A DNA stretch of 59,331 nt from Patescibacteria group bacterium (GCA_035529375.1 DATKWU010000004.1:1-59331), one strand, 5' to 3'. Counted from the first letter of the stretch, positions 7,624 through 54,296 are shown. A program made the numbers and translations. The notes: generated from the letters alone by a model not told the origin.

Positions 7624-7632
7624 TGCTATAAT
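7624..7632 (+). promoter_or_regulatory. Extended -10 promoter (TGcTATAAT) for the 7705 mini-gene
   Basis: tgctataat at 7624-7632; SD ggaggg upstream of ATG 7705. Confidence 0.65.
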
Positions 7633-7704
7633 TATAGGTAGAAATCCAAAGGGATGGCACTTTGTCAGACAAAAAATCCACGCAATTAGGATAGGAGGGT
7701 CGAG

Positions 7705-7899
7705 ATGTCAGGATATGACAAGAGTGATGCTGCGAAAGATACCGATTCGTCAAGCAGAGACGTTTCTCAAGCTTGGCACGACGCACGAGACGATGCTGTG
7801 GATAGCGGAGACCTTTCCCGCGGTGGTAGCACCCACTCCGATAGCGGAGACCGTGGTAGTGATGGGGAGAGCAGCGACCGCGGCTCAGACGACAAGTAG
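7705..7899 (+). CDS. 64-aa Asp/Ser/Gly-rich acidic orphan protein
   Basis: Own promoter, strong SD (aggataggagggtcgagATG), downstream terminator hairpin. Confidence 0.7.
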   Translation: MSGYDKSDAAKDTDSSSRDVSQAWHDARDDAVDSGDLSRGGSTHSDSGDRGSDGESSDRGSDDK

Positions 7900-7919
7900 T
7901 CGATCTTTGCTCCGGCAAA

Positions 7920-7961
7920 GGGCAGGAGTTTTTTCAGCCATCCCCTTTTTAACTCCTGCCC
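7920..7961 (+). terminator. Hairpin with 11-bp stem and 20-nt loop
   Basis: gggcaggagtt (7920-7930) / aactcctgccc (7951-7961). Confidence 0.75.
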
Positions 7962-7985
7962 CCATTTTTAAATCTTTTTAATAAA

Positions 7986-8345
7986 ATGACTCAAAAACAA
8001 GAAAAAGAACTAGTTAAAAAAGCTCGCCAAGGTAATAAAGAAGCCTTTACAGAATTAGCCCAAGAGGGCATCAGACTGGCAGTAAGTGTCGCCAAAAAAG
8101 AAGGCAAGGAAAAAGACTTCTTCAAATTAGCCAAAGCCGGTTTCTCTGGCTGGCTGATGGCTTTTGAAAAATATGATTTAAGCAAAGACTACAAACTCTC
8201 TACCTATTCCACCTGGTGGATCAGAGCCGCCATTAGAGAAGAACAAACAGGCGTCTCTATTCAAAAACAGGCGAAGAAAGAAAAAGTAAAAAAATACTCT
8301 TGGGAAAAGATGGCTAGAGAAACTCTGAGGGTTTGTAAAGAATGA
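7986..8345 (+). CDS. Sigma-70 region 1.2/2-only protein fused to a duplicated GT4 tail (possible remnant)
   Basis: EKYDLSKDYKLSTYSTWWIRAAI resembles sigma70 region 2.3-2.4 (KFSTYATWWIRQAI); no regions 3 or 4; last about 19 aa copy the GT4 C-terminus. Confidence 0.7.
   Translation: MTQKQEKELVKKARQGNKEAFTELAQEGIRLAVSVAKKEGKEKDFFKLAKAGFSGWLMAFEKYDLSKDYKLSTYSTWWIRAAIREEQTGVSIQKQAKKEKVKKYSWEKMARETLRVCKE
8284..8334 (+). repeat. Direct repeat copy 2: GT4 3' end
   Basis: See 7515-7565. Confidence 0.9.
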
Positions 8346-8374
8346 AACTAGAAATTTATCTAATAAAAGAAACA

Positions 8375-8428
8375 GAGCAGGTGAGTATGGTTTCGGCAAG
8401 AGCCAATTCCGGTGACTTCCACCTGCTC
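8375..8428. terminator. Large imperfect hairpin between convergent genes
   Basis: gagcaggtg (8375-8383) / cacctgctc (8420-8428) with inner stems. Confidence 0.6.
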
Positions 8429-8477
8429 GATAAGATCTGTCCTAGAAATCTAGAGAGAGTTTGCTTGTCAGCATTGA

Positions 8478-8753
8478 CTAGCCAAGTCGTTGGACAGCCT
8501 TTCGGATCTCTAGGTCAACATCCTCGACGCCCAGCGCCCTTAGGCCCTGTTTCAGCGCTTCGGCTGTTTCCGATAGGAACCGAGGTGGATTACATTCGAT
8601 TAGAGGAAGAGTGCTCAGTAGTTCAGCGATGCCGATCTGATTGGCAGTGGAAACGATGAGCGCTCTCCTCTGATCTTCAGGTAAGCCTTTAAGCACCTCT
8701 TTTGGGATGTAGTACTTAGCCCAACCTACCGCTACTAACACTTGTTCAGCCAT
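8478..8753 (-). CDS. 91-aa orphan protein
   Basis: Start reassigned to ATG 8753 (MAEQVLV) after SD gaggag; consensus promoter upstream. Confidence 0.7.
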   Translation of the reverse strand: MAEQVLVAVGWAKYYIPKEVLKGLPEDQRRALIVSTANQIGIAELLSTLPLIECNPPRFLSETAEALKQGLRALGVEDVDLEIRKAVQRLG

Positions 8754-8793
8754 CTCTTTCCTCCTCAATTCTCTTTCTCTAGGATTTTAAGTT

Positions 8794-8822
8794 ATTTTAA
8801 CAGAATAATAACAACGAGTCAA
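8794..8822 (-). promoter_or_regulatory. Sigma70 promoter TTGACT-17-TAAAAT
   Basis: Reverse complement of agtcaa 8817-8822 and atttta 8794-8799; 17-nt spacer. Confidence 0.7.
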
Positions 8823-8932
8823 ATATTATAGGATTTGAAAATTAATTTCCAGTGGGGTTTTGGATTTTTCTTTTGACCCAAAGCATTTGATTGTTGAAAC
8901 AATGGAGGAATGGTAAAATTAGAATTAGATTG

Positions 8933-10207
8933 ATGTTTATTGACAAACTTGAACTTCGACTCCGACGGGCGATAAAGTCAATCTTTCTTCGGCTGAAAGC
9001 CTATATCAAGCGTCTCCTTTTTCCTTTGTATCTTTTTCCTTTAAAACTGGTTACCTATTCCGCTTATTACTCGGTCAAGTTCCTGATTAAATTAGTTATT
9101 GCCCTTATTAAAATAATCATTGATGCTTTCATTTTTTCTTTTAAAAGCCTGAAGAATTTCTTGAAATCTCTTTTTGTTCTTGGTTTAGTTATTTACATGG
9201 TGGCTTCTCTTTTTGTGATTATGGATTACTTAAGAACCCAGTACGGCTATTACGGTAAGTTTTTATGTTCCTTTGGGGTTCAGGATAAGTTAAAGGGTTC
9301 GGTGGTCAGAGTCGTCGGCGGTTATTCTGAGGGATCCGGCTTTTTTATCACTGAAAACCAGATTCTAACTAACTTCCATGTTATTGCTGATGAACCCAGT
9401 CCTAAAGTAATCTTTCCTGACGGTAGTTTTATTACCCCGAATAGGATTCTTGGTGATAGAGACGCTGATTTGGCTCTTTTGTTTACCGAAGACCACTACC
9501 CGAATTTAGTTTTGCCTATTTTGAAAGATATTACCTTTCGTCAAGATGAACCACTAATAGCCACCGGTTATCCAATGGGAACGGAATTAAGCGGCAAAGC
9601 CACGGTTTTAAAGGGAAATTTTGTTGACTTTCGTAATCCCAAAAGCCAACGGGTCGGTTATATTCAAACTAATATCAGTTTAGTGGAAGGGATGAGCGGC
9701 GGACCTTTAACCGACCAGTGTGGACAGGTAGTCGGCATTAATACGATCGGCTTGGCTGGTTTATCTCTTTTTATTGATGCGGATCATGCCAGAATCATGG
9801 TTCCGCTCTTTACTGACCAGGAAATTACCAAGATAGAAGTTGATCCGTCGGCTTCTCCTGAGGAAGCGGTCAAGGCTTTTTATACCTATCTTAAAGCCAG
9901 GAAAATGAAAGAAGGCTTTGAGCTTTTAAGTCAGGAGTATCTCCAAAAGACCAATTTTGAAGAATGGACAAACAGATTTGTTGATATTCTAGATGTCAAT
10001 ATTTTTCTCTCGGAAAGATACGAAAATAGCGAAGACACGGTCTTTGTCAAATTTGGGACCAAAAACTGGGTTGATGGGGAAGTGGAAATTCATTATTATG
10101 AAGGCACTTGGCAAACAGTCCTGGAAGACGGTGTTTATAAAATGCTGAAAAGTAAAATAAAAGAAGTGGAAAATCCAGAATGGGATTGGTTTTATTCATC
10201 TGATTAA
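8933..10207 (+). CDS. Membrane-anchored trypsin-like serine protease (S1) with C-terminal alpha/beta (NTF2-like) domain
   Basis: Catalytic triad motifs LTNFHVI, DADLALL, GMSGGPL; N-terminal TM; ATG 8933 preferred over TTG 8891. Confidence 0.85.
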   Translation: MFIDKLELRLRRAIKSIFLRLKAYIKRLLFPLYLFPLKLVTYSAYYSVKFLIKLVIALIKIIIDAFIFSFKSLKNFLKSLFVLGLVIYMVASLFVIMDYLRTQYGYYGKFLCSFGVQDKLKGSVVRVVGGYSEGSGFFITENQILTNFHVIADEPSPKVIFPDGSFITPNRILGDRDADLALLFTEDHYPNLVLPILKDITFRQDEPLIATGYPMGTELSGKATVLKGNFVDFRNPKSQRVGYIQTNISLVEGMSGGPLTDQCGQVVGINTIGLAGLSLFIDADHARIMVPLFTDQEITKIEVDPSASPEEAVKAFYTYLKARKMKEGFELLSQEYLQKTNFEEWTNRFVDILDVNIFLSERYENSEDTVFVKFGTKNWVDGEVEIHYYEGTWQTVLEDGVYKMLKSKIKEVENPEWDWFYSSD

Positions 10208-10235
10208 AACTATAAGCTAGAGTGTAGGTAAAATA

Positions 10236-10270
10236 GACTATTGACACCAGAATAAATAGTCGGGTATAAT
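10236..10270 (+). promoter_or_regulatory. lexA promoter (TTGACA-18-TATAAT) overlapped by inverted repeat GACTATT-N12-AATAGTC
   Basis: ttgaca 10241-10246, tataat 10265-10270; IR arms 10236-10242 and 10255-10261; ATG 8 nt after the -10 (leaderless). Confidence 0.7.
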
Positions 10271-10278
10271 TTTAGCAA

Positions 10279-10917
10279 ATGAGACTAGCCATTACCAAAA
10301 GACAAAAAGAATTACTCTCGATCATTTACAAATTCATTAAAGAAACAGGTTATCCTCCAAATTTTGAAGAGATGAAAGATGCTCTAAACGTTGTCTCTAA
10401 TCAATCAGTAGTTGATCTTCTTGGCCATCTTGAAAGAAAAAAATTTATTAAGCGTGATGAAGGAACAGCCCGAAGCATCGCTATTTTACTGTTAGGATAC
10501 GAAGCTTTGGAAAGACCTCCACTAGTTCCTTTTTTAGGTATAACCAGTGCAGGAGCGCCTCTAGAAGCAATTGAGGTTTCTGGAGATTGGGAAGCTATAT
10601 CTTCAGAAGTAACTCAACTTAAAGATGAAGTTTTTCTTCTTAGAATCTCTGGTGATTCGATGATTAATGCGGGTATTGATGATGGAGACACAGTTTTAGT
10701 TAAGAGACAAAATGAATTCGTTTCTGGGGATATTGTCTTGGCTGATGTTGAAGGAGAATCAATGGTCAAGCGATTTATTTCCGACGACCAACCTCCATAC
10801 ATTTACCTTAGACCAGAAAATCCAAAATATGATGTTATTCCATTCACTGACAAGATGAAATTGAAAGGTAAAGTTGTTTCAGTTTTAAATAAAGCATACT
10901 GGAAACCAGCAGCTTAA
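10279..10917 (+). CDS. lexA: LexA-family repressor (wHTH + S24 peptidase)
   Basis: TKRQKELL..I..FI..GYPP wHTH, Ala-Gly cleavage site (SAGAP), GDSM and VKR catalytic Ser/Lys. Confidence 0.88.
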   Translation: MRLAITKRQKELLSIIYKFIKETGYPPNFEEMKDALNVVSNQSVVDLLGHLERKKFIKRDEGTARSIAILLLGYEALERPPLVPFLGITSAGAPLEAIEVSGDWEAISSEVTQLKDEVFLLRISGDSMINAGIDDGDTVLVKRQNEFVSGDIVLADVEGESMVKRFISDDQPPYIYLRPENPKYDVIPFTDKMKLKGKVVSVLNKAYWKPAA

Positions 10918-10926
10918 GGAGAATTT

Positions 10927-12879
10927 ATGCCAACAGTGAAACAAAACAAGACAAAAGTAGTAATTGACAAAATTTTTAAAGACCCAGGAATTCTTTATGG
11001 GCTGAAAGAGTTTGAAGAGATAGATTTGGTTAAAGTTCTAACGATTACCGAGGAAGAGAAAGGGGTTTATTATATTAAAGATCTCAAATCTGGAAAAAGA
11101 AAAGTTGTCTATGACGAAGAAAAACAGAAGGGCAAACCTGAAGAAATTATTCGGCAATTATGGCTTTACAAACTCCACACTACCTATAAGTATCCATTTG
11201 AACGAATAGATACAGAGAAGAGTATTCACTTCGGTCACGAAATTCACGCCAAAGCGGCTGATATTATTGTTTACAAGAAAGATAAAATTACACCCTTTAT
11301 TATTATTGAAGTTAAAAGCCCAACAGAAAAGAAAGGCATTGAACAACTCAAGAGTTATCTCTCTGCCGAGGGTTCAGAAATCGGAGTTTGGTCGAACGGA
11401 ATAGAAAAAGTAATCTTGTACAGACCCTATCCAAAGGAATTCGAGGATTCCTTAAGTGAAATTCCAGCCGCAGATCAGACAATTGATGATCTCTTTGAGA
11501 TTAAAAAAACCTGGAATGATTTAAACCCCAAATTTGATTTTGTCGAAATTGTTAAAAGAATTGAAGAACTGGCACTAGCTGGTTCTGGAGCTAATGTCTT
11601 TGAGGAGATATTTAAAATGATCTATGCCAAACTTTTTGATGAGAAGTTGGCTCTTGAACGCCGAAAAGACCAAGAAGTTCTTTTTAGAAAGTACCGTGAT
11701 CCGGAAAAAACCTATGAAATTATCAATCAACTCTTTAAAAATGCTGCCCGGCAATGGCCGGAAACCTTTGAGTCGTCTGAGCGGATTAAGCTTACGCCGG
11801 CAAGACTTAATATTTGTGTTCCTTTTTTAGAAAATGTTCGCTTTTTTGAATTAGGCCAGGGCGAATATGAGATTATCGATAGCGCTTTTGAATATCTCAT
11901 CACCGAGGTTTCAAAAGGTAAAAAAGGTCAATATTTTACTCCTAGGCACGTGATTAAGATGTGTGTGAAGATGCTTAATCCCAAAGATGATGAGTATGTT
12001 ATTGACCCCGCCTGTGGTTCTGGAGGATTCCTCCTTCACACAATGTATCAAGTATGGGATAGTTTGCCAACAGAATCAGCGAAGAAAGATTATGCAGGAA
12101 AATACCTTTTTGGAATTGATTTTGATGACAATATGCGACGAATTTCTCAGGCACTGATGTTAATTGCCGGTGATGGCAAACACAATATTTTTAAAAGAGA
12201 TTCACTTGATGCTCGGGATTGGCAGGGAGTTTATGCAGAAGAAGCCCGGGTAGCCTTAAAGCCGCTTTTAGCTAAATTTGACAACCCCTCAGATGATAAA
12301 GAAAACCAGCTTGCTTATAGCCATCTTAATTTTGATATTTTATTAACCAACCCTCCGTTTGCCGGTGAAAATCCGGAGCCAGGCTTGCTACGTCAGTATG
12401 ATTTAGCCAAAAAGGACGGCAAACTAAAGAAAAACGTTGAACGCCACATTCTTTTCATTGAAAGATCATTAGATGCGATTCGACCAGGGGGTCGTCTAGC
12501 GATAGTTCTACCTCAAGGAGTCTTAAATAACACCAATATGGAATATATTCGTCAGTGGATATTTGAGAAAGCTAGAATTTTAGCAGTAGTCGGCTTACAC
12601 GGTAATACTTTTAAACCTCACACGGGTACTAAAACAAGTGTTTTGTTTTTACAAAAATGGATCGAAGATGAAAAACAACCAAAGGATTACCCAATTTTCA
12701 TGGCGGTTTCCAAAAAATCGGGAAAAGACAATTCCGGGAATTATGTTTATAAAAAAGACGAAAAAGGAAACCTAGTCTATGATGGCCGAGGTCGCAAAGT
12801 TCTCGATCATGACCTCGACGAAATCGCCGAAAAGTTTATTAAATTCGCTAAAGAGCAAAAATTTAGTTTTTGGAGGTAA
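10927..12879 (+). CDS. Fused restriction endonuclease / N6-adenine methyltransferase (HsdR_N-like + N6_Mtase; Type IIB/IIG-like RM subunit)
   Basis: N-terminal ADIIVY...IIIEVK PD-(D/E)xK; GQYFTPR, DPACGSGGFL (motif I), NPPF (motif IV). Confidence 0.88.
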   Translation: MPTVKQNKTKVVIDKIFKDPGILYGLKEFEEIDLVKVLTITEEEKGVYYIKDLKSGKRKVVYDEEKQKGKPEEIIRQLWLYKLHTTYKYPFERIDTEKSIHFGHEIHAKAADIIVYKKDKITPFIIIEVKSPTEKKGIEQLKSYLSAEGSEIGVWSNGIEKVILYRPYPKEFEDSLSEIPAADQTIDDLFEIKKTWNDLNPKFDFVEIVKRIEELALAGSGANVFEEIFKMIYAKLFDEKLALERRKDQEVLFRKYRDPEKTYEIINQLFKNAARQWPETFESSERIKLTPARLNICVPFLENVRFFELGQGEYEIIDSAFEYLITEVSKGKKGQYFTPRHVIKMCVKMLNPKDDEYVIDPACGSGGFLLHTMYQVWDSLPTESAKKDYAGKYLFGIDFDDNMRRISQALMLIAGDGKHNIFKRDSLDARDWQGVYAEEARVALKPLLAKFDNPSDDKENQLAYSHLNFDILLTNPPFAGENPEPGLLRQYDLAKKDGKLKKNVERHILFIERSLDAIRPGGRLAIVLPQGVLNNTNMEYIRQWIFEKARILAVVGLHGNTFKPHTGTKTSVLFLQKWIEDEKQPKDYPIFMAVSKKSGKDNSGNYVYKKDEKGNLVYDGRGRKVLDHDLDEIAEKFIKFAKEQKFSFWR

Positions 12880-12881
12880 AA

Positions 12882-13589
12882 ATGAAACAAGATAATGATT
12901 TTCTTCAGCCGGTAATCTCCGTACTAGGACTTGCAATTTCCTTAATTATCGCAATCCTACCGCTTTTTAAGTTAGAGCCTTTAATCAAATTGTTTACTAA
13001 TAAAGATTTGGCTCAACCAGTCTCATTTTTAACTTTTATACTTGGTGTAGCCATTGTTTGGCAAATTATAGAATTTCATCCCTTTGTGTCGATTCCACTC
13101 GGAAATCTTAAGGACAGAGGCAGAGGATTCCCTGAATATTGGAAAGTGTTAGGGACAAATAACATAATTTGGTTGTTAGTATTTTCCTCGTTCTTTTTTG
13201 GATTTTTATTTCTTTTTGCACAAAGTTGGAGTGGCAATTTTGCATTAGGCCAAGCTATTTTTTATTTGCTTTTCTTTTTATCCTTGATTTCTATCTTTTC
13301 TATTCTATTCACACAGACAAGGCAAAAATATATGTGGAACGAACGTAGAAAGAACTTTCCTCAGACAGTTTTTGAGACACTAGAAAGAAATAGGTTAGTA
13401 AAACCGGGTATAGAGATCTACGAAAATGTTCAACTGGGAGCCCAAGAACTACAAGATATGGGTTTTAAAAACGTATTTCTTGCCAAAAAGATGACAGTTA
13501 AGACGATTTCGCAAGAGCCAGAAGTTATAAAGTTTATTATTTCTTCTGATGGTGAAGAAATTTTGAAAGTGATTAAGAAAGGAAAATAA
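12882..13589 (+). CDS. Hypothetical multi-TM (about 5) membrane protein inside the RM operon
   Basis: Hydrophobic helices in the N-terminal 145 aa, soluble C-terminus; start ATG 12882 after ggagg; stop overlaps the next start (taatg). Confidence 0.75.
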   Translation: MKQDNDFLQPVISVLGLAISLIIAILPLFKLEPLIKLFTNKDLAQPVSFLTFILGVAIVWQIIEFHPFVSIPLGNLKDRGRGFPEYWKVLGTNNIIWLLVFSSFFFGFLFLFAQSWSGNFALGQAIFYLLFFLSLISIFSILFTQTRQKYMWNERRKNFPQTVFETLERNRLVKPGIEIYENVQLGAQELQDMGFKNVFLAKKMTVKTISQEPEVIKFIISSDGEEILKVIKKGK

Positions 13590-14941
13590 TGGTTTTTTCA
13601 ATAATCAAAAAATCCCAACTCGAAGGTGCGAACCGATTGGATGCGGAATATTACCAGCCGGAGTATCTGGAAAAAATTAAAAAATTGCAATCTTCTACTG
13701 TCAGACTTGGAGATATCGCTTATATTACTGACGGTGAACATGGATCGCCTATTTTTGATGAAAAAAGCGGAATAAAATACTTCTCTGCCCAACATGTAAG
13801 AGACGGATTTATAGACGACACCAATGTCAACACAATTTCTAAAATTATTGATGAGAGAAATAAAAGATCACAGTTGAAAGAAGGAGATGTTTTATTGTCC
13901 ACCGTAGGTACAATTGGTTTTGCTGGTTTAGTAACAAAGGAATTTCTACCAGCTAATATTGACAGGCACGTCGCGCGGATTGTTTTAAAGGAAAAAACCT
14001 TAGAACCAGAGTTTTTAGTTGCCTTTTTAAATTCAAGATATGGGAAATTTCAATCGGTCCGCGAATCTACTGGGAATGTTCAGTTTAATTTGTTTATCGA
14101 TAAAATTAAAGATCTTAAAGTCCCTAAATCTAACAATCCCTACATTGCGCGGTTATTAAAAGATGCACTAAAAGAACTAGATAATACAGAGAATTTTTAT
14201 TCCCAAGCAGAAAATTTGCTTTTAGAAGAATTAGGGCTGAAGGATTTTGAAGTGGAGGATGATTTATCTTTTGTGGTTAATCTTTCCGAAGTAAAATCCG
14301 CTCATCGTGCCGATGCCGAATACTTCCAACCGAAATACGAAAAATTAATTGAAAAAATTAAAAATAAAAATGCAAAATTACTAGGGGAATTAGTTTCAAT
14401 AAAAAAAGGAATTGAACCAGGGAGCGAAGAATATCAAGAAGAAGGAAAATTATTTTTTCGAGTAAGCAGCCTCTCGAAATTCGGGTTTGAAGATAAAGAT
14501 CAAAAATACCTAACCGAAGATTTATATCAAAAACTTAAGGATGATTTTGAACCAAAAGTTGGGGAAATTTTATTAACTAAAGATGCAACACCAGGGATTG
14601 CCTATGCGTTAAAAGAGCCAATTGAGGGAATAACCGCAGGAGGAATTTTGCGATTGAAGTTAAAGGCAAAAATTGAGCAAGAATATTTGGCATTAGCTAT
14701 AAATTCAATTGTAGGTCAGATTCAGGTTGAAAGAGACACCGGTGGTTCAGTTATAGTCCATTGGAGACCAGATCAGGTTAGAGATTGCCTAATTCCTGTT
14801 CTCTCAAAATCAACCCAACAAAAAATTGCCAATTTAGTAAAAAAATCTCACCAAGCCCGCAAAAAATTAAAAGAACTTCTCGAAAAAGCAAAAAGAAAAG
14901 TTGAAGAGATAATTGAAAAAGGAGGTGAAAAAACTGCATGA
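13589..14941 (+). CDS. hsdS: Restriction-modification specificity subunit (HsdS-like, two TRDs)
   Basis: Duplicated RLDAEYYQP / RADAEYFQP motifs, GDVLLSTVGTIG, PEFLVAFLNS, coiled-coil spacers. Confidence 0.85.
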   Translation: MVFSIIKKSQLEGANRLDAEYYQPEYLEKIKKLQSSTVRLGDIAYITDGEHGSPIFDEKSGIKYFSAQHVRDGFIDDTNVNTISKIIDERNKRSQLKEGDVLLSTVGTIGFAGLVTKEFLPANIDRHVARIVLKEKTLEPEFLVAFLNSRYGKFQSVRESTGNVQFNLFIDKIKDLKVPKSNNPYIARLLKDALKELDNTENFYSQAENLLLEELGLKDFEVEDDLSFVVNLSEVKSAHRADAEYFQPKYEKLIEKIKNKNAKLLGELVSIKKGIEPGSEEYQEEGKLFFRVSSLSKFGFEDKDQKYLTEDLYQKLKDDFEPKVGEILLTKDATPGIAYALKEPIEGITAGGILRLKLKAKIEQEYLALAINSIVGQIQVERDTGGSVIVHWRPDQVRDCLIPVLSKSTQQKIANLVKKSHQARKKLKELLEKAKRKVEEIIEKGGEKTA

Positions 14942-15249
14942 TTTTGAAAGATAATTCAAATATAAAACTTCCAAGTTTCACGGGCGGTTCGTTTACAGAA
15001 ATGGATATCCACAGAACTGGAGCCCTTAATAACCTTATATTGGAAGGAATAGAAAAAATGGAAAATGGCGACTTAAAACTTGTTGTTCGAACTGAGAAAA
15101 CACAAAATAAGTTAAGTGATTCTATTAAATTTTTGAAAGAAAAACGAGGATTGAAAAATGCTCTTCATAAGTGGTTATCCGGTCAGATAGGAAAAACAAT
15201 AGATTCGATATACAGAAGTGAGTTTAGTTTTGAAAAAGACAGCGAGTAA
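14938..15249 (+). CDS. Hypothetical protein (103 aa)
   Basis: ATGA overlap with hsdS, SD aaaggaggtg. Confidence 0.65.
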   Translation: MILKDNSNIKLPSFTGGSFTEMDIHRTGALNNLILEGIEKMENGDLKLVVRTEKTQNKLSDSIKFLKEKRGLKNALHKWLSGQIGKTIDSIYRSEFSFEKDSE

Positions 15250-15577
15250 AAATGGCTAAAGCAAAGTTTAAGAAATTCAAACTACCAAAAACAGGTGATT
15301 TTCTTGCCTATAAGGTGGAAGTTTGGGCAAAAGAAGTATTACAATTTTCTTTCATAGGAAAGTTGACTGGCACAGAGCTTAAAATTTCGAAAGATAAGGG
15401 ATACGTAAAAACAGATACGGAAGCTCTTAAAAAACTCAGAATTTATAGTGTTAAAAAAGCGAGAGAAATTTATCAAGGAAATAGGTTTCGTATTGGGGAA
15501 GAATTTCAAGCATTTTACTTTCCTTCTTGGTGATTTTTTGAAACCTTTGAATTCTGGCAGTGAGTAAAAATGGCTAA
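15240..15577 (+). repeat. 20-nt direct repeat cag(c/t)gagtaaaaatggctaa spanning two consecutive start codons
   Basis: 15240-15259 vs 15558-15577, 19/20 identical. Confidence 0.85.
15252..15533 (+). CDS. Hypothetical basic protein (93 aa)
   Basis: ORF in operon orientation, flanked by a 20-nt direct repeat. Confidence 0.6.
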   Translation: MAKAKFKKFKLPKTGDFLAYKVEVWAKEVLQFSFIGKLTGTELKISKDKGYVKTDTEALKKLRIYSVKKAREIYQGNRFRIGEEFQAFYFPSW

Positions 15578-47605: not shown

Positions 47606-48681
47606 ACAAGCGTTTCTTTGAGTTTGATTGGGCTTTGCTTTTTATAATTTTGATTTTATTAACAATCGGTCTAGTAACGATTAGTAGTCTAGATAGAAAT
47701 CTTTTTTTCCAACAATTTTTCCACTTTCTAATTGGTTTACTCTTTTTTATTCTCTTCAGCAAGATTGACTATCATCTCTACCAGCGCTATAAATGGTGGC
47801 TTTTTATTGGTGCCCTAGTTTTTCTTTCCTCAACCTTTGTTTTTGGCGCCGTGACTCGAGGCTCAATCCGTTGGATAAGAATCTTTGGTCTCACTCTCCA
47901 ACCTTCAGAGTTAATCAAGCCTTTGCTGGTTGTCTTTTTTGCTTCTCTGTTTTTTGAACTCAAAAAACTTTCTTTGACTAATTTGCTTAAAGCTGGTGGC
48001 CTGATTATGATACCTGTTTTGCTGATTTTTCTTCAGCCTGATCTCAGTAGTAGTTTGGTTGTTTTGACCGCTTGGCTAGGAATTGTTTTAGCTACAGGGA
48101 TTTCCTGGAAAATTGTTGTTAGTTCCTTTGTCTTTTTCTTAGCTGGCCTACCGATTAGCTGGCGCCTCTTAAAACCCTATCAACAACAACGAATTTTTAG
48201 TTTTTTGAATCCCTTGGCTGATCCCTTGGGCGCTGGCTATAATTTAATTCAATCAGTGGTGGCGGTTGGTTCCGGCCAGCTTTTAGGCAGGGGACTAGGC
48301 AAGGGGACCCAAGCCCAACTAATGTTTTTACCAGAAAGACACAGTGATTTCATCTTTGCCACCATTGCCGAAGAATTTGGTTTTTTAGGCAGTTTTTTCC
48401 TGATTGTTTTAATTGGTTTTTTGTTTTGGCGACTCCTTGAGATTGCTCGTTCAACGCGTGATGGCTTAGGTTTCCTTATTTCTTTAGGCATCTTTACTCT
48501 TTTGGTTAGCCAAACCTTAATCAATATTGGCATGAACCTAGGTTTATTGCCGATTACCGGTGTTACCCTGCCTTTGGTTTCCTATGGAGGCAGTTCTCTG
48601 GTTGCCAGCCTGATCAGCTTAGGAATCATCAATAATATTGCTATCCAGAAAAAAAGAAACCAGGCCCTTGAAATTAAGTAG
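47602..48681 (+). CDS. rodA: SEDS protein RodA
   Basis: GSIRW, LQPSELIK, LQPDLSS, GKGTQAQL.FLPERHSDF, LPLVSYGGSS. Confidence 0.9.
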   Translation: MNKRFFEFDWALLFIILILLTIGLVTISSLDRNLFFQQFFHFLIGLLFFILFSKIDYHLYQRYKWWLFIGALVFLSSTFVFGAVTRGSIRWIRIFGLTLQPSELIKPLLVVFFASLFFELKKLSLTNLLKAGGLIMIPVLLIFLQPDLSSSLVVLTAWLGIVLATGISWKIVVSSFVFFLAGLPISWRLLKPYQQQRIFSFLNPLADPLGAGYNLIQSVVAVGSGQLLGRGLGKGTQAQLMFLPERHSDFIFATIAEEFGFLGSFFLIVLIGFLFWRLLEIARSTRDGLGFLISLGIFTLLVSQTLINIGMNLGLLPITGVTLPLVSYGGSSLVASLISLGIINNIAIQKKRNQALEIK

Positions 48682-48704
48682 GAGTTGAATTAAAATTAGA
48701 AGTC

Positions 48705-49037
48705 ATGAAATATGCTGTTATCGAGATAAATAATCGCCAACACAAAGTCACTGAAGGTGAAGAATTGGCGGTTGACAAACTTGAAGGTAAAAAAGGAGAA
48801 AAATTAACTTTTGATAAGGTCTTGCTTTTAATTGATGAGAAAAAAAGGTTTATAGGCCAGCCTCTAGTCAAGGGAGCTAAAGTGACAGCCGAAATCATTG
48901 AGCAATTCAAAGACAAAAAGATTAGAGTGGCCACCTACAAAGCTAAATCAAGATACAGAAAAGTAAAAGGTCACCGATCTCAACTAACTAAAATAAAGAT
49001 AAACAAGATTAGTCTTTCTAAATCTTCTTCAAAATAA
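48705..49037 (+). CDS. rplU: 50S ribosomal protein L21
   Basis: MKYAVIE...QHKV.EG, KSRYRKVKGHRS.LT.IKI. Confidence 0.97.
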   Translation: MKYAVIEINNRQHKVTEGEELAVDKLEGKKGEKLTFDKVLLLIDEKKRFIGQPLVKGAKVTAEIIEQFKDKKIRVATYKAKSRYRKVKGHRSQLTKIKINKISLSKSSSK

Positions 49038-49048
49038 AAACCTCATAT

Positions 49049-49077
49049 TTGACGCTATAGGATTATTGTGGTATCCT
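49049..49077 (+). promoter_or_regulatory. Sigma70 promoter TTGACG-17-TATCCT
   Basis: ttgacg 49049-49054, tatcct 49072-49077. Confidence 0.6.
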
Positions 49078-49117
49078 CTTTGACAAGAATCATTACGCAT
49101 GAGAAGAGGAGGTCGAA

Positions 49118-49366
49118 GTGAGAGAAGGAGAATTTGAAGGGAGGCGCCAAGATCTAATAGTTATCCCTACCCAAGAAAGCGTGGCCTCAGGGATGCTATA
49201 CGGTTGTCTAACAAGCGCCAACTTTCGAGAGAAGAGAGGCCTTGTCATTCGAGCTGATGAGCTCGAAGTGACAATCCGGGTTCCGGAAGGCCAGGAATAC
49301 GAAGAAGTTAAGGCATGGGTCAAGAAGAAAGGTAGTGAGCGCAGTCTCATCATTCGGATCACCTAA
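49118..49366 (+). CDS. 82-aa orphan protein
   Basis: GTG start after SD gaggagg; own promoter and terminator. Confidence 0.7.
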   Translation: MREGEFEGRRQDLIVIPTQESVASGMLYGCLTSANFREKRGLVIRADELEVTIRVPEGQEYEEVKAWVKKKGSERSLIIRIT

Positions 49367-49382
49367 TCCATCTTCTTGGCCG

Positions 49383-49420
49383 AAACTGGCTCTTGTTATT
49401 CATAGGCACGAGCCAGTTTT
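49383..49420 (+). terminator. Terminator hairpin, 10-bp stem, 17-nt loop
   Basis: aaactggctc / gagccagttt followed by a T-rich tract. Confidence 0.75.
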
Positions 49421-49583
49421 CTTTTCCCCAAATAAAAACTCGCCTCTAATTAAAAGCTACTTTTAACTTTAAGCGAGTTTACTAGCACATTTTTCTCCTA
49501 CAACGCTTAGAGAAAGAATCGAAAAATTTCAATCCTTTCTGAAAAGGTTGTAGGATTTGAAATGAAAGAAAGAGGAGGGGGTT

Positions 49584-49603
49584 AGTAGTCATCGTTGACT
49601 ACT
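49584..49603 (-). terminator. Hairpin at the 3' end of the Arg-rich gene
   Basis: agtagtca-tcgt-tgactact. Confidence 0.6.
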
Positions 49604-49615
49604 GCTTCCCGATTT

Positions 49616-49876
49616 CTAGTAGGAGTGCCTTAGTTGGCGTAATACCTGTTCGTCTCTATCTCTTGCTTTTCTTGGCCTTCCTGTTTGTCTTCTTCGTCCT
49701 TTCTTCGTTGTTTCCTTTTCTGCTACCCTTTTCAGAGCCATTTTGTGGGCCCGTTGCATGTGTGCGTGGAGTACCCTCGGCGTACCTGTTGGTCTGCAAG
49801 AGTTGGATCGCCTTTCCGAGGCAATCCTCTTGCTTCTGCTCCTATTATATCTCGAACCAGATCTTGGTCTTGCCAT
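49616..49876 (-). CDS. 86-aa Arg/Lys-rich basic orphan protein
   Basis: 21 Arg + 7 Lys; purine-rich SD region (aaaggaagggga) before ATG; downstream hairpin. Confidence 0.6.
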   Translation of the reverse strand: MARPRSGSRYNRSRSKRIASERRSNSCRPTGTPRVLHAHMQRAHKMALKRVAEKETTKKGRRRQTGRPRKARDRDEQVLRQLRHSY

Positions 49877-49969
49877 TTCCCCTTCCTTTCTTCCTTCCTG
49901 TTATGTGCGAGATTTCTATTTTTGTTTATATCAAATTATGGGACTAAAAAGCAAGTACATTTTATAGGA

Positions 49970-49998
49970 TTGATTTGAACCCCTTTTTTTGCTATATT
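49970..49998 (+). promoter_or_regulatory. Sigma70 promoter TTGATT-17-TATATT with TG extension
   Basis: ttgatt 49970-49975; tgctatatt 49990-49998. Confidence 0.6.
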
Positions 49999-50036
49999 TC
50001 CTAACTAAGAGAGGGAGTAAAGTCAAGGAGGGAAGA

Positions 50037-50390
50037 GTGGGTAGTCAAGAGGTCTTCAAGGACTCTTTCTGTAAGAGTCGTCAAGTGGCTGAGGAAATCA
50101 TGTCAGACTTTGCCGCGAGGGCATTCGACTATAAGGGAGCAGAGCTTGTAGTCAAGTTTGAGATGAGGATGAGAATGAGGATGGATTTGGCCATTCGAAG
50201 GGTATCTACGCAGTCTGAGAAGTTGGGATATCTTTTTGGCTATATCAAGGCCGTGAATGGTCTCTTTGAGATAGCGAATAAGAGGCCGAACGCTAACGCG
50301 AACGAGTTGTCTGAAGAATTCAGGAACCTTTTAGCTGTAGCTCAAATACAGCTTCCTGAATATTCATTTTCGGATTCCTTTCTGGAATAG
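50037..50390 (+). CDS. 117-aa helical orphan protein
   Basis: Start reassigned to GTG 50037 after SD aaggagg. Confidence 0.7.
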   Translation: MGSQEVFKDSFCKSRQVAEEIMSDFAARAFDYKGAELVVKFEMRMRMRMDLAIRRVSTQSEKLGYLFGYIKAVNGLFEIANKRPNANANELSEEFRNLLAVAQIQLPEYSFSDSFLE

Positions 50391-50474
50391 AAGCATTTAC
50401 TCCCTCTCTCATCCTCTCTTATTCTTCGTGTAAATATTGACAAGTGTGAAAAAATTTGTTACTTTGATTAGACA

Positions 50475-50723
50475 ATGGCAAAAACTAAAGCTGGTGGCAG
50501 TAAAGCGAGTCAACTATCACCCCGGCCTGGTAAAAGGTTAGGAGTGAAAATTTTTGGTGGCCAGGCAGTCAAGGCTGGTAATATTATTATTCGCCAGCGA
50601 GGAACTAAGTTCCATCCTGGTTCTGGTGTGGGGATTGGCCGAGATCATACCCTTTTTGCTCTTAAAGACGGCATGGTTGAATTTATTAAAAGACAAGGCA
50701 GAAAACTAATCACTGTTTCTTAA
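50475..50723 (+). CDS. rpmA: 50S ribosomal protein L27
   Basis: [47 protein letters not shown]. Confidence 0.97.
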
Positions 50724-50728
50724 AAAAA

Positions 50729-51559
50729 ATGGCTAAACAGATTGTTGATATTAATATAAACGAGCTTCAATCAAACCCCCTTCAGCCGCGAGGTGTGGTT
50801 ACTCCCGAGTCCTTAGTTGATTTAATTGAGTCGATTAAGGAACATGGTATTCTTGAACCTTTGGTGATTGCCAAAACTCCGGCTGGCTATCAAATTATTG
50901 CTGGTGAACGTCGCTGGCGGGCGGCTAAATCGGCTGGTTTGGCGACAGTGCCGGTCATCATTAAAGAAACCTCGCCTCGGGGAATGTTAGAAATGGCTTT
51001 GGTGGAAAATGTTCAGCGGGAAGATTTGAATGCTCTTGATCGGGCCAAAGCTTTTATTAGGCTAATTGAAGAGTTTGGTTTAACCAACAAAGAAATATCT
51101 AAGAGAATTAGTAAAAGCTCTGCTTACATTTCCAATTCGATCAAATTGCTTTCTTTACCTGATGCTCTCAAGGATGGTCTTTTGTCTGGTTTGATTACTG
51201 AAGGTCATGCTCGGGCTTTATCCTCAATTGACGATACTAAATTAATGATTGAGGCCTACAAAATTATTCTTCGTGAATCTGGTTCAGTCCGGAGAGCTGA
51301 AGAAGTGGCTCGGCGAATTAAGAAAAAAGGTAAACAGCCTTCTAAAACAAAGACGGCGGAGAGACCTCTAATCGTTTCTGAAGAGACAGATAAAGTTCAG
51401 GAAGATCTTCATCGGGCTCTTGGTGGTGAAGAAGATGTCCATGTCAAGTTAACTCGTTCTCGCGCCCAAACCAAACTCTACATTGTTCTCAAAGGCAACA
51501 CGAAAAAGACAGAAGATAAACTTCAGAAGATTTACCGCGGGATTACCAAAGCAAACTAA
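50729..51559 (+). CDS. parB: ParB/Spo0J partition protein
   Basis: NPLQPR, SIKEHGILEPL, IIAGERRWRAA, ALVENVQREDLN, HTH. Confidence 0.95.
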   Translation: MAKQIVDININELQSNPLQPRGVVTPESLVDLIESIKEHGILEPLVIAKTPAGYQIIAGERRWRAAKSAGLATVPVIIKETSPRGMLEMALVENVQREDLNALDRAKAFIRLIEEFGLTNKEISKRISKSSAYISNSIKLLSLPDALKDGLLSGLITEGHARALSSIDDTKLMIEAYKIILRESGSVRRAEEVARRIKKKGKQPSKTKTAERPLIVSEETDKVQEDLHRALGGEEDVHVKLTRSRAQTKLYIVLKGNTKKTEDKLQKIYRGITKAN

Positions 51560-52113
51560 TAGTCAACCCTTCTAATAATTCCAACTCTGTCAACCGGCCA
51601 GTAACGAAGCCAAACTTTACCGACAATATTCTTTTCTGGAACCGTCCCCCAATCTCGAGAGTCTGAACTGTAGGGCCGATTATCACCAGAAACAAAGTAT
51701 TGATTTTCATCAAGAGTAATACTTTGACCTGATTGCCAGAAGTGACCAGCGCTGGTGCAAAGATTTTCAGGTAAATACTCTTCTTCTAAAATCTGGCCAT
51801 TGACAAGAATATGACAATTTTCTACCTTAATGCTGTCTCCGGGCAGACCAGTAATTCTTTTAATGTAATCATATTTTTCATTCCCTGGAGCCTTAAAAAC
51901 AATTATATCACCCCTTTTGGGTTCGCTTAATTGATAAGTGATTTTATCAGTTAAAAGATATTCTTGATCCTGAAAATTAGGATACATAGAATTACCTCTG
52001 ACTTGATGGGGTTGAAAAAGAAAGAGATACATCAAAACGAAGATTGCCAGAGCAATTACAAAAGTTTCAACGATATCGAGAAAGAAGCCACCAATCTTCC
52101 TGAAAAAAACCAT
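51556..52113 (-). CDS. lepB: Signal peptidase I
   Basis: GNSMYPN, YIKRITGLPGD, GDNRPYSSDSRDWG; start 52113 or 52122. Confidence 0.95.
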   Translation of the reverse strand: MVFFRKIGGFFLDIVETFVIALAIFVLMYLFLFQPHQVRGNSMYPNFQDQEYLLTDKITYQLSEPKRGDIIVFKAPGNEKYDYIKRITGLPGDSIKVENCHILVNGQILEEEYLPENLCTSAGHFWQSGQSITLDENQYFVSGDNRPYSSDSRDWGTVPEKNIVGKVWLRYWPVDRVGIIRRVDY

Positions 52114-52178
52114 ATGAAACAATATTATTCTTCTTTAAATTGTCTGTAAAGCCTGAATTTGCTAAAATCAAGAGTGAT

Positions 52179-52252
52179 GGGTGATTAGCTCAGTTGGTTA
52201 GAGCGCTTCGTTCACATCGAAGAGGTCGCAGGTTCGAATCCTGCATCACCCA
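52179..52252 (+). tRNA. tRNA-Val (anticodon CAC), CCA not encoded
   Basis: Acceptor gggtgat/atcaccc, D-arm tagctcagttggttagagc, anticodon arm cttcg-ttCACat-cgaag, T-arm gcaggttcgaatcctgc; discriminator A followed by CTA. Confidence 0.95.
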
Positions 52253-52294
52253 CTAATTTATTTCTCTAGTTAATAATTAATTATGGAAGGAAGG

Positions 52295-52470
52295 GGGGGG
52301 AAAGATCTGGGAGGGAGGAGAAGGTTCTGTGTGGTGATGAACGTCAGGATTTGATTCGCACCCAAGACCAAGCACCGGGGGCACAGGACCAAACAAGAGT
52401 CCCGTTCCTCCTTGCGATGAACAGCAAGGAAACGAACCTCCTCACACGGACCCTCCCAGATTTCAAACTA
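52295..52470 (-). ncRNA. Candidate structured ncRNA (or micro-ORF mRNA), unassigned family
   Basis: 11-bp end pairing 52305-52315/52451-52461, internal stems, no long ORF; minus-strand promoter TTGACT-18-TACAAT at 52579-52550. Confidence 0.4.
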
Positions 52471-52594
52471 TCTTATAGGCAACCTCCTTTCGCATCGAGC
52501 CAAAGGAACCGCTTTGATTCCTGGAGATTGACTAGTTGTCAAGGATTTCATTGTAGCAAATGGAAATTAGAGAAGTCAAGGCAGAAACTCTAGA

Positions 52595-52644
52595 GGGGAC
52601 ATCATGGGCTGTTCTGGCGGCTGAAAGTGCCACATTTTGTCCCC
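52595..52644 (-). repeat. 3' structured repeat of cassette A (terminator-like)
   Basis: ggggaca...tgtcccc outer stem with internal tgttctggcggc and tgccac; similar copy at 53220-53267. Confidence 0.8.
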
Positions 52645-52664
52645 CCTTTTTTGTTTGCCTATTC

Positions 52665-53096
52665 CTAAGTACCCGTGTAGAGGGCATAGCTATTCTTTGC
52701 CATGATGATAGTACCCATCCCTACCGAGAGACTCAGGATGAAGCCAGTTGAGTATGTTGGAAGGAAAGCAGCGATGACAACCCCAGAGACAAAACCCAGG
52801 ATTATCAGTATGATCGAGATGGCGGCCAAGATGAGGACTAGGAGACAGCCTTCTTCTTCATGCTTTCCAGTGTCCAGGTAGATCATTAGGGTCCAGACCA
52901 GATAGCCTAGAGGGATATGCACCCCCCAGAACATTCCGATCCGGAACGTTCTCTCCTGCCATTCTCCAAGGGCAGCTGAACCCGCGAAGAGAGCGAGGAG
53001 AAGAAAGATGATAGAGCAGAAGACCATCGAGATGCGCCATTCCCATCTATGCGATTCTACTATCCGAAGCTGTTCATGCAGACTCCATTTGCTCAT
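52665..53096 (-). CDS. 4-TM orphan membrane protein, paralog 1
   Basis: SD aggagg; motif FxxGxxxGxxxPxGxxV shared with paralogs 2 and 3. Confidence 0.8.
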   Translation of the reverse strand: MSKWSLHEQLRIVESHRWEWRISMVFCSIIFLLLALFAGSAALGEWQERTFRIGMFWGVHIPLGYLVWTLMIYLDTGKHEEEGCLLVLILAAISIILIILGFVSGVVIAAFLPTYSTGFILSLSVGMGTIIMAKNSYALYTGT

Positions 53097-53115
53097 CCTA
53101 CCTTCCTCCTATCTC

Positions 53116-53175
53116 AATGTGCCACCAGAACAAATTAAGTATATTTAAAAAAGACTTCTAAGTCAATATTATGGG
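53116..53175 (-). repeat. 60-bp promoter/leader repeat, copy A (TTGACT-17-TATACT + leader)
   Basis: 57/60 identical to 54237-54296. Confidence 0.92.
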
Positions 53176-53219
53176 AATATAGATTAAGAATTTATTAATA
53201 TTAATTTGAAGTGTTAGAA

Positions 53220-53267
53220 GGGGACATTGCGTTGTTTTGGTGGCGAGAGCTGCCACGCTTTGTCCCC
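53220..53267 (-). repeat. 3' structured repeat of cassette B
   Basis: ggggaca...tgtcccc with internal ttgttttggtggc and tgccac. Confidence 0.8.
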
Positions 53268-53284
53268 TCCTTGTTTGTTGGCTG

Positions 53285-53695
53285 TCAGCCTTTATTGAGA
53301 ACATTAGAAAACTCAATGATCATTAAACCTCCTGCGATACTGACGGCGTACCCCCAAAGCATTATTCTTGGGGCTACCAGTATTAGGACGAAGCCAATCG
53401 GTATACCAGCTATGATCATTCCCAGGCTGCCGAAACAGACAAAACAGCCAAGGAACCAGCGAAAGGTGTTGTCTGGGTTTTTTATCGGTGCTATCGCATT
53501 GAATATGATATAGACAAATCTTCCCGCTGGAGAGATTGTTCCGACCATTACACCGGCCAGGAACAAGTTACTCATACCTTCTTGTATCTCCTTTGGTATT
53601 CCTAAAAATAAAAGGAGAGTTACAAGAACGACAACAAAGCAGTAATAGATTCTCTTGGCCCTTCTCTCTAGTCTATCTACATCTTCTTTTTTCAT
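53285..53695 (-). CDS. 4-TM orphan membrane protein, paralog 2
   Basis: Start reassigned to ATG 53695 (MKKEDV) after ggaga; shared motif. Confidence 0.8.
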   Translation of the reverse strand: MKKEDVDRLERRAKRIYYCFVVVLVTLLLFLGIPKEIQEGMSNLFLAGVMVGTISPAGRFVYIIFNAIAPIKNPDNTFRWFLGCFVCFGSLGMIIAGIPIGFVLILVAPRIMLWGYAVSIAGGLMIIEFSNVLNKG

Positions 53696-53723
53696 GGTCT
53701 TCTCCGATCTCAAAACATCATGT

Positions 53724-54194
53724 CTAGTCTTCCTTACATTTATGAGGGTCATCCTGAGAGAGCTGATATAAGCTATAGCTACCCCTTGCCATTTCGATGA
53801 TCCCTACCCCTAGTGAGAGGGTAAAGATATAGCCAATAAGGCTCATTTTTGATTGAAACAAAAGAGGTAGGCCGATTCCAAAGATTGGTCCTAGAGCTAT
53901 TATAATTATCCCAACTATGAGAATAAGGAATGGGTCTGAAACCTTCCCTCTTAGGAATAGGGCTATGTTACAGACCAGAAAGCCGGTGGGAGTGACTAAC
54001 CCCACTAGCATTCCCCCTAGAAATGAACTTTCTTGCAGGCATTCGGGGTAGTTAGCCATAAATGTGAGGAAAGCGACTAGAAGGAACAGGACAGAATAGA
54101 AGACAACTACAATGTTTTGCTCCTGTTTTTCATCCCTCATCTCTCTTTTGAGGATCCGATAGCGATCTTTCAATTTCAGATTCTTGACGGACAT
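53724..54194 (-). CDS. 4-TM orphan membrane protein, paralog 3
   Basis: SD taaggag; shared motif; C-terminal MARGSYSLY matches MAKNSYALY of paralog 1. Confidence 0.8.
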   Translation of the reverse strand: MSVKNLKLKDRYRILKREMRDEKQEQNIVVVFYSVLFLLVAFLTFMANYPECLQESSFLGGMLVGLVTPTGFLVCNIALFLRGKVSDPFLILIVGIIIIALGPIFGIGLPLLFQSKMSLIGYIFTLSLGVGIIEMARGSYSLYQLSQDDPHKCKED

Positions 54195-54236
54195 CGGTTT
54201 CTCTCCTTATTGTCAGGTATCAGGTATTAACAAGTG

Positions 54237-54296
54237 AATGTGCCACCAAAACAAACTAAGTATATTTAAAAGAGACTTCTAAGTCAATATTATGGG
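54237..54296 (-). repeat. 60-bp promoter/leader repeat, copy B
   Basis: See 53116-53175. Confidence 0.92.

Follow-up and report, generated by a model that had tools for sequence, protein, structure and literature searches.

Can the beginning of a bacterial message be built to pair with its own end, and is such a match the habit of a lineage, the mark of a few genes, or a coincidence? The question is raised by a 59,331-nucleotide (nt) stretch of DNA from a Patescibacteria group bacterium (GCA_035529375.1, DATKWU010000004.1:1-59331), here called the window. It is the whole of contig C4 in the 843-kb, 19-contig genome (~39% G+C) of a candidate phyla radiation (CPR) bacterium. A first-pass annotation of this DNA described four or more stand-alone orphan gene units and three weaker cases, labeled U1 to U7 here, in which a block at or near the predicted transcript start is complementary to the region just after the stop codon. 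It read these "closed ends" tentatively as a lineage-wide system of end-paired mRNAs or, alternatively, as mobile gene cassettes bounded by inverted repeats. We find the observation partly confirmed and the interpretation partly supported. One joint account explains the data best, and we put its probability at roughly two in three: pairing of the two ends that covaries in U6 and U7, which form one family; a plausible closure of the same kind in U5; chance in U1 to U4; and no genome-wide system.

To our knowledge, pairing in cis between the 5' and 3' untranslated regions (UTRs) of bacterial mRNAs has been dissected experimentally in only a handful of cases (hbs, icaR, and type I toxins). U6/U7 adds a case with natural covariation, from a CPR lineage that is uncultured and has a reduced genome. 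Unusually, the predicted +1 nucleotide has its partner in the apical loop of a 3' hairpin. The genes concerned encode an undescribed family of proteins with four transmembrane helices (4-TM), whose own sequences are much less conserved than their promoter and leader. The subject bears on how organisms with minimal sets of ribonucleases (RNases) control mRNA lifetime.

Matches between gene ends and the genomic background

The matches exist. In U5, AGAGAGGGAGTAAA at 50008-50021 is the exact reverse complement of 50396-50409 (14/14), and in U7, GCCACCAAAACAA at 54242-54254 is matched by 53232-53244 (13/13). U6 joins 53121-53132 to 52610-52621 through 11 Watson-Crick (WC) pairs and one G.U pair, as claimed, and the match extends to 13 pairs, 11 WC and two G.U (53121-53133/52609-52621). 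The 8/8 match of U1, gggatggc at 7651-7658 with gccatccc at 7937-7944, is likewise present, and promoter-like sites and Shine-Dalgarno (SD) sequences are found in the units as described.

How often do such matches arise by chance? For the scans below, genes were called with our own heuristic, a periodic Markov model with fill-in guided by ribosome-binding sites; the calls were checked against precomputed gene calls and merged into units. The genome and third-order Markov simulations were compared for exact inverted repeats of 11-17 nt whose arms stand 100-1500 nt apart. Repeats of at least 13 nt number 55 in the 843-kb genome and 48-75 in five simulations; both arms are non-coding in 4 of the 55, and the two longest of these are the ones singled out in the first-pass annotation. 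The ends of transcription units were then compared directly, the 80 nt before the start codon against the 90 nt after the stop, with cross-unit combinations, the 5' region from one unit and the 3' regions from others, as the null. Across 319 units, the mean longest WC run is 6.62 for a unit's own ends and 6.51 for the cross-pair null; runs of at least 7 occur in 151 units (142 expected) and runs of at least 8 in 61 (52 expected). Runs of at least 13 occur in two units, U5 and U7, where 0.22 are expected. When 100 units were anchored on their promoters, with 20 nt starting 6 nt past the -10 box set against the 3' 90 nt, the top three of the genome were U5 (14), U6 (12 with G.U), and U7 (12). 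Here, WC runs of at least 12 number 2 against 0.05 expected, and the remainder matches the null. RNAduplex energies over the whole 80 x 90-nt regions gave identical own and cross distributions and were uninformative.

These results divide the seven units. U5 and the paralogous pair U6/U7 are genuine outliers and represent two independent families; neither orphans nor the other genes of the genome have closed ends as a rule. The other four units lie at background. The U1 match is at chance level because 61 of 319 units show a run of at least 8, and the 7-nt matches of U2 (8478-8753) because 151 show a run of at least 7; the other weak cases, U3 (49118) and U4 (49616), show background complementarity as well. 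Genome-wide, the bulk equals the null and the excess is confined to the extreme tail. With no enrichment beyond U5, U6, and U7, there is therefore no lineage-wide closed-end system, and the promoter/arm module of U6/U7 is absent from 400 class-level representative genomes. The negative is a useful one: matches of 7-8 nt between gene ends arise by chance in 20-50% of units.

A covarying match between the predicted 5' end and the 3' hairpin of U6/U7

U6 and the two genes of U7 (U7a and U7b) encode paralogous 4-TM proteins of a rare family. Single-sequence homologue searches with U7a and U5 returned self matches only, and no homologue of either was found among 60 to 100 relatives; seven other contigs with U7a are colinear with the window and 99.99-100% identical to it, and are uninformative. 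A sister-species contig, reached through its signal peptidase gene, carries a U6 orthologue. A four-sequence profile then recovered further family members, and their DNA was retrieved. The resulting set, from assemblies and metagenome contigs, comprises nine complete units in at least six sequence lineages (U6, U7, L047, L043, L050, L052A, L052B, L053, and L054).

The nine units share one arrangement. Behind the same conserved promoter, a 5' block of 11-13 nt begins at an invariant G located 7-8 nt past the -10 box, and its complement is held in the 20-25-nt apical region of the G+C-rich hairpin that ends each unit. A promoter-leader block (CCCATARTATTGACTTAGRAGYCTTTTTTAAATATAMT ... GUUYUGGUGGCACAUU) is common to eight of the nine and averages 83% identity; the proteins, 20-87% identical across units, are less conserved.

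In a gap-free alignment of 13 pairs across the nine units, 94% of the 117 cells pair, and 4 of the 13 pairs have changed on both sides. At position 6, five units have U-A and four have C-G; the other changes are each found in a single unit, C-G at position 4 in L053, C-G at position 5 in L054, and G-C at position 2 in L052B. The count of double-change cells (seven) was equalled in 0 of 500 shuffles, as was the covariation score (0.282; shuffled, 0.192 +/- 0.021). When the register is slid by 1-3 columns, pairing falls to 29-56%, with at most one double change. Within the 11-bp core (positions 3-13), the non-WC cells are five sense-strand G.U cells and one terminal C.U. The predicted duplex of the 11-nt 5' end with its own 3' loop has an energy of -17.5 to -21.4 kcal/mol, compared with a cross-unit mean of -16.1. 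U6 and U7, which reside in one genome behind near-identical promoters, differ at position 6 in both arms; each matches its own partner, which argues against a shared DNA-binding protein as the cause.

The boundary of the pairing is also informative. Pairing is nearly invariant from the invariant G onward, 7-8 nt past the -10 hexamer, where a start site canonically lies. Of the nine units, four have mismatches at the two positions upstream of this G, and L052B, where the G lies one base earlier at the 7-nt position, is paired there. Because pairing begins at a G at the canonical start distance, we infer that the transcript starts at the first paired base. At the other end, the stems of the 3' hairpins covary as well (GGGGACA/UGUCCCC, GGGGGCA/UGCCCCC, GAGGAGACA/UGUCUCCUC, and GGCAGGCGUG/CACGCCUGCC), and the CARAAC part of the 3' arm stays locally unpaired. 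RNAalifold applied to the 3' hairpins returned the outer stem and a 5-bp inner hairpin only, the longer members having been misaligned by MAFFT.

The complementarity is conserved in this family, and it covaries. The proposed pairing of the message's first bases with the sequence behind the stop codon thus finds support here, in nine units with compensatory changes; for U5, where covariation is absent, it is plausible only. As far as comparative sequence analysis can tell, the 5'-3' pairing of U6/U7 is real and probably functional, in one rare family.

U5, a plausible second case

U5 is a plausible second case of 5'-3' pairing, not a proven one. In RNAfold predictions, its 14-bp helix has a probability (P) of about 0.98 with a start at or before 50008. 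In the minimum free energy (MFE) structure the SD pairs with 50376-50383, and the MFE of the transcript has z = -2.9 relative to shuffles. A U5 profile found nothing in 400 class genomes, and no relatives were found outside the genus. Within it, a homologue with 52-53% protein identity occurs in a sister-species metagenome contig (L041) and in three further assemblies. It keeps a 12-bp core (AGAGAGGGAGTA/TACTCCCTCTCT) plus one G.U, and its ends are predicted to pair, but in a slipped purine/pyrimidine register and with a different partner for the SD. The 3' arm belongs to a longer conserved stretch. The closure of U5 could be an icaR-like 5'/3' pairing near the SD, or an effect of composition.

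Around U5, the orphan coding regions change far more quickly than the DNA on either side of them. Relative to L041, the DNA of U5 is 53-75% identical over most 40-nt segments and that of U4 is 30-72% identical, with many indels; the U4 and U5 promoters and flanks are 80-93% identical, and the neighboring housekeeping genes mostly 85-100%. One sister-species contig from a metagenome-assembled genome (CAZZHA010000015.1) has a 100-N gap between the U5 arms (L036:7613-7712 = L040:3613-3712), which four other sister-species assemblies read through.

Points against closed ends

Several considerations weigh against the account given so far. The start sites and 3' ends of U5, U6, and U7 are predictions, the starts being taken from -10 spacing. 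In nested RNAfold predictions of the full U6 and U7 transcripts, the long-range helix has P of at most 0.02. So low a value is no surprise, since a helix formed with the loop of a closed hairpin is a pseudoknot; it nonetheless leaves the U6/U7 structure without independent thermodynamic support, and the helix can form only if it makes a pseudoknot with the hairpin stem or if local structure opens. A local GUGGC segment offers positions 9-13 of the 3' arm an alternative partner, so that only positions 3-8 are uniquely explained by the 5' end. The nine sequences amount to about three to four independent double substitutions, and the shuffle statistics ignore phylogeny. The 3' hairpins have no good sense-side U-tract; a T-run sits on the opposite strand, which makes their role as sense terminators uncertain. 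For U5, the helix is lost with a start at 50012, and the specific 12-bp register has P of 0.07 in the sister species. There is no covariation, the arms being invariant in the single homologue, and both arms are low-complexity purine or pyrimidine tracts; furthermore, no terminator lies between U5 and rpmA. Finally, whatever part the contact may play in mRNA stability or translation is something that we wholly infer.

Read on the + strand, the segments 52590-52650 and 53217-53275 are hairpins followed by T-rich runs, e.g., CCTTTTTTGTTTG, and these runs are conserved in relatives as an A/C-rich tract before the hairpin. The 3' hairpins may also terminate antisense transcription or read-through from the tRNA-Val gene.

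A proposed mechanism and its rivals

We propose that the U6/U7 units belong to a rare and conserved module for gene expression in CPR bacteria, made up of a strongly conserved sigma70-type promoter, one or two 4-TM genes, and a G+C-rich 3' hairpin. The predicted first 11 nt of the message, GUUYUGGUGGC from the invariant G, have their exact complement in the large apical loop of that hairpin. The 5' terminus would pair with the loop in cis over 11-13 bp, at about -19 kcal/mol, and with the hairpin stem closed this would form a pseudoknot-type contact that holds the message's two ends together. Decay that depends on the 5' end is slowed when that end is base-paired, and for this reason protection of the 5' end is the function that we prefer: a buried end would most likely limit attack by 5'-end-dependent RNases and set the lifetime of the mRNA or its competence for translation, as in hbs.

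A bolder extension, which we hold as tentative and rather unlikely, treats the module as a dedicated self-closing CPR mRNA. Transcription would begin at precisely the first paired base, so that the triphosphorylated +1 nucleotide would be buried in the pseudoknot, and the message, topologically closed, would resist decay that depends on either end. A potentially harmful membrane protein would be switched on when processing, or competition from another RNA (a conserved downstream transcript, Px, or an antisense one), opened the message. The module would then be an antitoxin-less or new-style relative of type I toxin control, and U5 would have arrived at the same principle independently.

Among the rivals to end pairing, the one that survives best is coincidence: chance complementarity, together with the shared ancestry of duplicated promoter and terminator modules, would account for the matches without any function. 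Genome-wide inverted-repeat counts do equal the simulations, the bulk complementarity of units equals the null, 4 of the 7 claimed cases are at chance level, and the U5 arms are purine and pyrimidine tracts, which match more easily and slip in register. Yet two unbiased scans both placed U5, U6, and U7 at the top, at expected counts of 0.05-0.22, and duplication cannot produce compensatory double changes at four positions across nine units. The covariation in the nine units already argues against this explanation for U6/U7, and we regard it as improbable overall.

Somewhat more doubtful is the idea that these are loci resembling type I toxin-antitoxin systems, in which the mRNA for a toxic membrane protein is kept inert by fold-back until its 3' end is processed with an antisense RNA in control. 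A membrane protein is indeed encoded, long-distance 5'-3' interactions mark hok- and aapA-type mRNAs (PMC8594479), and the SD is paired in the U5 MFE structure. A weak opposite-strand promoter (53144-53172, 9/12) and a T-run hairpin could moreover yield an RNA of ~95 nt antisense to the U7 3' end. The proteins, however, are of 136-163 amino acids (aa) with four TM helices, not peptides of less than 60 aa; the first-pass annotation had already remarked that the cargo is not of typical type I toxin size, and we agree. The U6/U7 arm ends at least 27 nt before the AUG and leaves the SD uncovered, no conserved overlapping antisense promoter was found, and the sister species does not keep the 3'-end pairing that would sequester the SD of U5.

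The arms could also act in DNA, as the crossover sites of an inverton that flips the gene relative to a fixed promoter. They form an inverted repeat of 11-14 bp, which flanks the gene between promoter and SD on one side and past the stop codon on the other; recombination requires identical cores, and would likewise select matched cores and produce covariation within units. The 100-N gap between the U5 arms in the sister species would fit an unresolved invertible or variable segment. We consider this quite unlikely. All assemblies are colinear, and no inverted orientation was seen among strain contigs, sister species, or family units: the seven other contigs of the strain are about 100% identical to the window, the four other sister-species assemblies cross U5 in the same orientation, and the gene is in the "on" orientation in nine of nine family units. 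No recombinase family appears among the precomputed Pfam hits for genes within +/-6 kb. The core mismatches are G.U pairs in the sense strand, save for the terminal C.U, and the location of the 3' arm in the loop of a covarying hairpin fits the logic of RNA.

The orphan units do come and go in evolution. U3, with its promoter, 82-aa ORF (open reading frame), and large-loop terminator, is absent from the sister species: the indel measures 398 bp, and the 10-bp direct repeat on either side of it, AAATAAAAAC (49032-49041 and 49430-49439), overlaps the stop codon of rplU. Two related genera have nothing in the gap between rplU and rpmA, and a third has three unrelated ORFs there, which makes the gap a hotspot for orphan genes. 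The sister species also lacks the segment of U7 and the neighboring gene X2. As approximately mapped, this segment appears to end close to the 60-nt promoter blocks that U6 and U7 have as duplicates, a position that would be consistent with unequal homologous recombination. That the arms are the ends of mobile cassettes, bounded by inverted repeats or integron-like, is nevertheless scarcely credible: the indel boundaries lie off the arms in U3 and, as approximately mapped, in U7, in the sister species the arms and flanks of U5 are kept at their site around a coding sequence (CDS) that diverges, and the arms and flanks have no copy elsewhere in the genome.

The U6/U7 protein family and its surroundings

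Proteins of the U6/U7 family have 136-163 aa and four to five predicted helices. An AlphaFold model of the U6 family (predicted local distance difference test [pLDDT] score, 79) also has four to five helices, and Foldseek returned no match to it in the PDB (best E, 0.54). The 60-nt promoter/leader blocks of U6 (53116-53175) and U7 (54237-54296) are 95% identical, with proteins ~35% identical; in other assemblies the block remains ~83% identical while the proteins fall to 20-30%. The same block reads on the opposite strand as a promoter, TTTAAA-17-TATTAT, directed toward the small TM gene X2 (54386-54610); in the U6 copy, this reading points at the U7 3' hairpin. An exact 30-mer of the promoter module had 0 matches in metagenome contigs, and 14 matches to the module in viral contigs were rejected as unrelated sequences without the -10 box and arm. 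Reading the GUGGCAC motif as the -24 element of a sigma54 promoter was dropped for want of a correctly spaced TTGC.

A second conserved promoter, TTGACTT-N-TACAAT, lies downstream of the U6-type unit (window 52290-52579, - strand; L043:1414-1700), and the region also occurs in L047 (~3505-3790) and L055 (~548-810 and ~822-969). It precedes a G+C-rich non-coding region of ~250 nt that is closed by a long-range stem, CUGGGAGG/CCUCCCAG; the stem covaries in L055 (CCUGGGGGAGG/CCUCUCCCCCAGG), which holds two tandem copies. This region is a candidate structured RNA with no Rfam match. Pairing of the Px RNA with the 5' arm was considered and dropped, since the complementarity is not conserved in L043.

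Features of the window

The features discussed above are collected in Table 1. Ten orphan proteins compared with Pfam and PHROGs gave no match except a Sigma70_r2 fragment in ORF 7986-8345, and among Rfam covariance models run on the window only tRNA-Val reached its gathering score. U6, U7a, U7b, and U4 score poorly or not at all under a coding model trained on the long genes of the genome, and their G+C content is 44-48%, against 39% for the genome; together, the weak scores and higher G+C suggest atypical codon usage, or a foreign or young origin.

Table 1. Coordinates of the U1 to U7 features in the window.
Feature	Position	Strand	Remarks
U7 promoter, TTGACT-17-TATACT	54259..54287	-	in 60-nt block 54237-54296, 95% identical to U6 block
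U7 5' arm, RNA UUGUUUUGGUGGC	54242..54254	-	invariant G 54252, 7 nt past -10 box, is the predicted +1
U7a CDS, 156 aa, 4-TM, U6/U7 family	53724..54194	-	
U7b CDS, 136 aa, divergent paralogue, second gene of U7 unit	53285..53695	-	
U7 3' hairpin, outer stem GGGGACA/UGUCCCC	53217..53270	-	loop carries 3' arm GCCACCAAAACAA, 53232-53244
U6 promoter, TTGACT-17-TATACT	53138..53166	-	within duplicated block 53116-53175
U6 5' arm, UUGUUCUGGUGGC	53121..53133	-	invariant G 53131 is the predicted +1
U6 CDS, 143 aa, 4-TM protein	52665..53096	-	orthologues 65-87% identical (related assemblies, metagenome contigs)
U6 3' hairpin	52590..52650	-	loop carries 3' arm GCCGCCAGAACAG, 52609-52621; T-run after hairpin on opposite strand
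U5 promoter, TTGATT-17-TATATT	49970..49998	+	conserved in sister species
U5 5' arm, AGAGAGGGAGUAAA	50008..50021	+	purine-rich leader immediately upstream of SD
U5 CDS, 117 aa, genus-only orphan	50037..50390	+	52-53% identity to sister-species homologue
U5 3' arm UUUACUCCCUCUCU (50396-50409) and second pyrimidine tract	50396..50425	+	no hairpin before rpmA promoter
U1 5' block, gggatggc	7651..7658	+	8/8 with 7937-7944 in terminator loop; chance level
U2 orphan CDS	8478..8753	-	claimed 7-nt end matches at chance level
U3 unit, CDS 49118-49366	49042..49439	+	8-nt end match including one G.U; chance level
U4 small basic ORF	49616..49876	-	fast-evolving, with indels; SD/3' pyrimidine match not above background

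Two further rearrangements are visible. Around U1, a 54-nt direct repeat with 85% identity (7512-7565 and 8281-8334) duplicates the 3' end of a glycosyltransferase gene on either side of a 769-bp insert. The insert contains U1, with its 64-aa acidic low-complexity ORF, and a 119-aa ORF with a Sigma70 region-2 fragment only, fused to the duplicated glycosyltransferase tail; a search of 30 relatives for the U1 unit came back empty. Near the other end of the window, the 65-aa ORF X5 (54875-55072, - strand) and the non-coding DNA that follows it (54696-54875) match the C-terminal part of L043:2-748, a contig-truncated gene of 248 aa in the sister species; X5 is probably the truncated remnant of a gene of this kind.

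Comparison with known systems

The closest parallel to U6/U7 is hbs of Bacillus subtilis, where a 14-bp interaction of the 5' UTR with the 3' UTR (-19 kcal/mol), proven by compensatory mutants, restricts cleavage by RNase Y and limits RNase attack on the leader (PMC5737220; Braun, Durand & Condon 2017). The hbs duplex is short and perfect and lies within one mRNA, as would that of U6/U7, and its size and energy match those of the U6/U7 helix (11-13 bp, about -19 kcal/mol). The placement of the partners differs. The 3' partner of hbs is found immediately upstream of the terminator, its 5' partner inside a long structured leader, whereas in U6/U7 the 5' partner starts at the predicted +1 and the 3' partner occupies the apical loop of a hairpin. 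The support differs in kind as well: natural covariation for U6/U7, compensatory mutants and RNase data for hbs.

For U5, the best analogue is icaR of Staphylococcus aureus. There, a pyrimidine-rich UCCCC motif in a 3' UTR of ~390 nt pairs with the purine-rich SD region, with proven RNase III cleavage and translation block (PMC3868564; Ruiz de los Mozos et al. 2013). The UCCCUCUCU tract at the 3' end of U5 would pair in a similar manner with the AGAGAGGGAG leader beside the SD. Unlike icaR, U5 has a 3' arm that starts 5 nt past the stop, its SD is not reproducibly covered, and its pairing is predicted.

Type I toxin mRNAs, such as hok with its fbi/tac elements and aapA1 of Helicobacter pylori, use 5'-3' fold-back (T1TAdb, PMC8594479; PMC5416894). 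They resemble U6/U7 in end-to-end pairing, in a message for a membrane protein, and in a compact unit with its own promoter and 3' stem-loop. They differ in the size of the cargo (<60 aa, against 136-163 aa in U6/U7), and U6/U7 has no evident antitoxin RNA and does not sequester its SD. Invertons share with U6/U7 the short inverted repeats that bracket a segment beside a fixed promoter; the differences are the absence of a recombinase gene from the Pfam hits within +/-6 kb, the single orientation in assemblies, the wobble mismatches, and the location of the 3' repeat in a covarying hairpin loop. Set beside these systems, the pairing in U6/U7 is neither a lineage-wide system nor the boundary of a cassette: it is a variant of the long-range interactions known in bacterial mRNAs.

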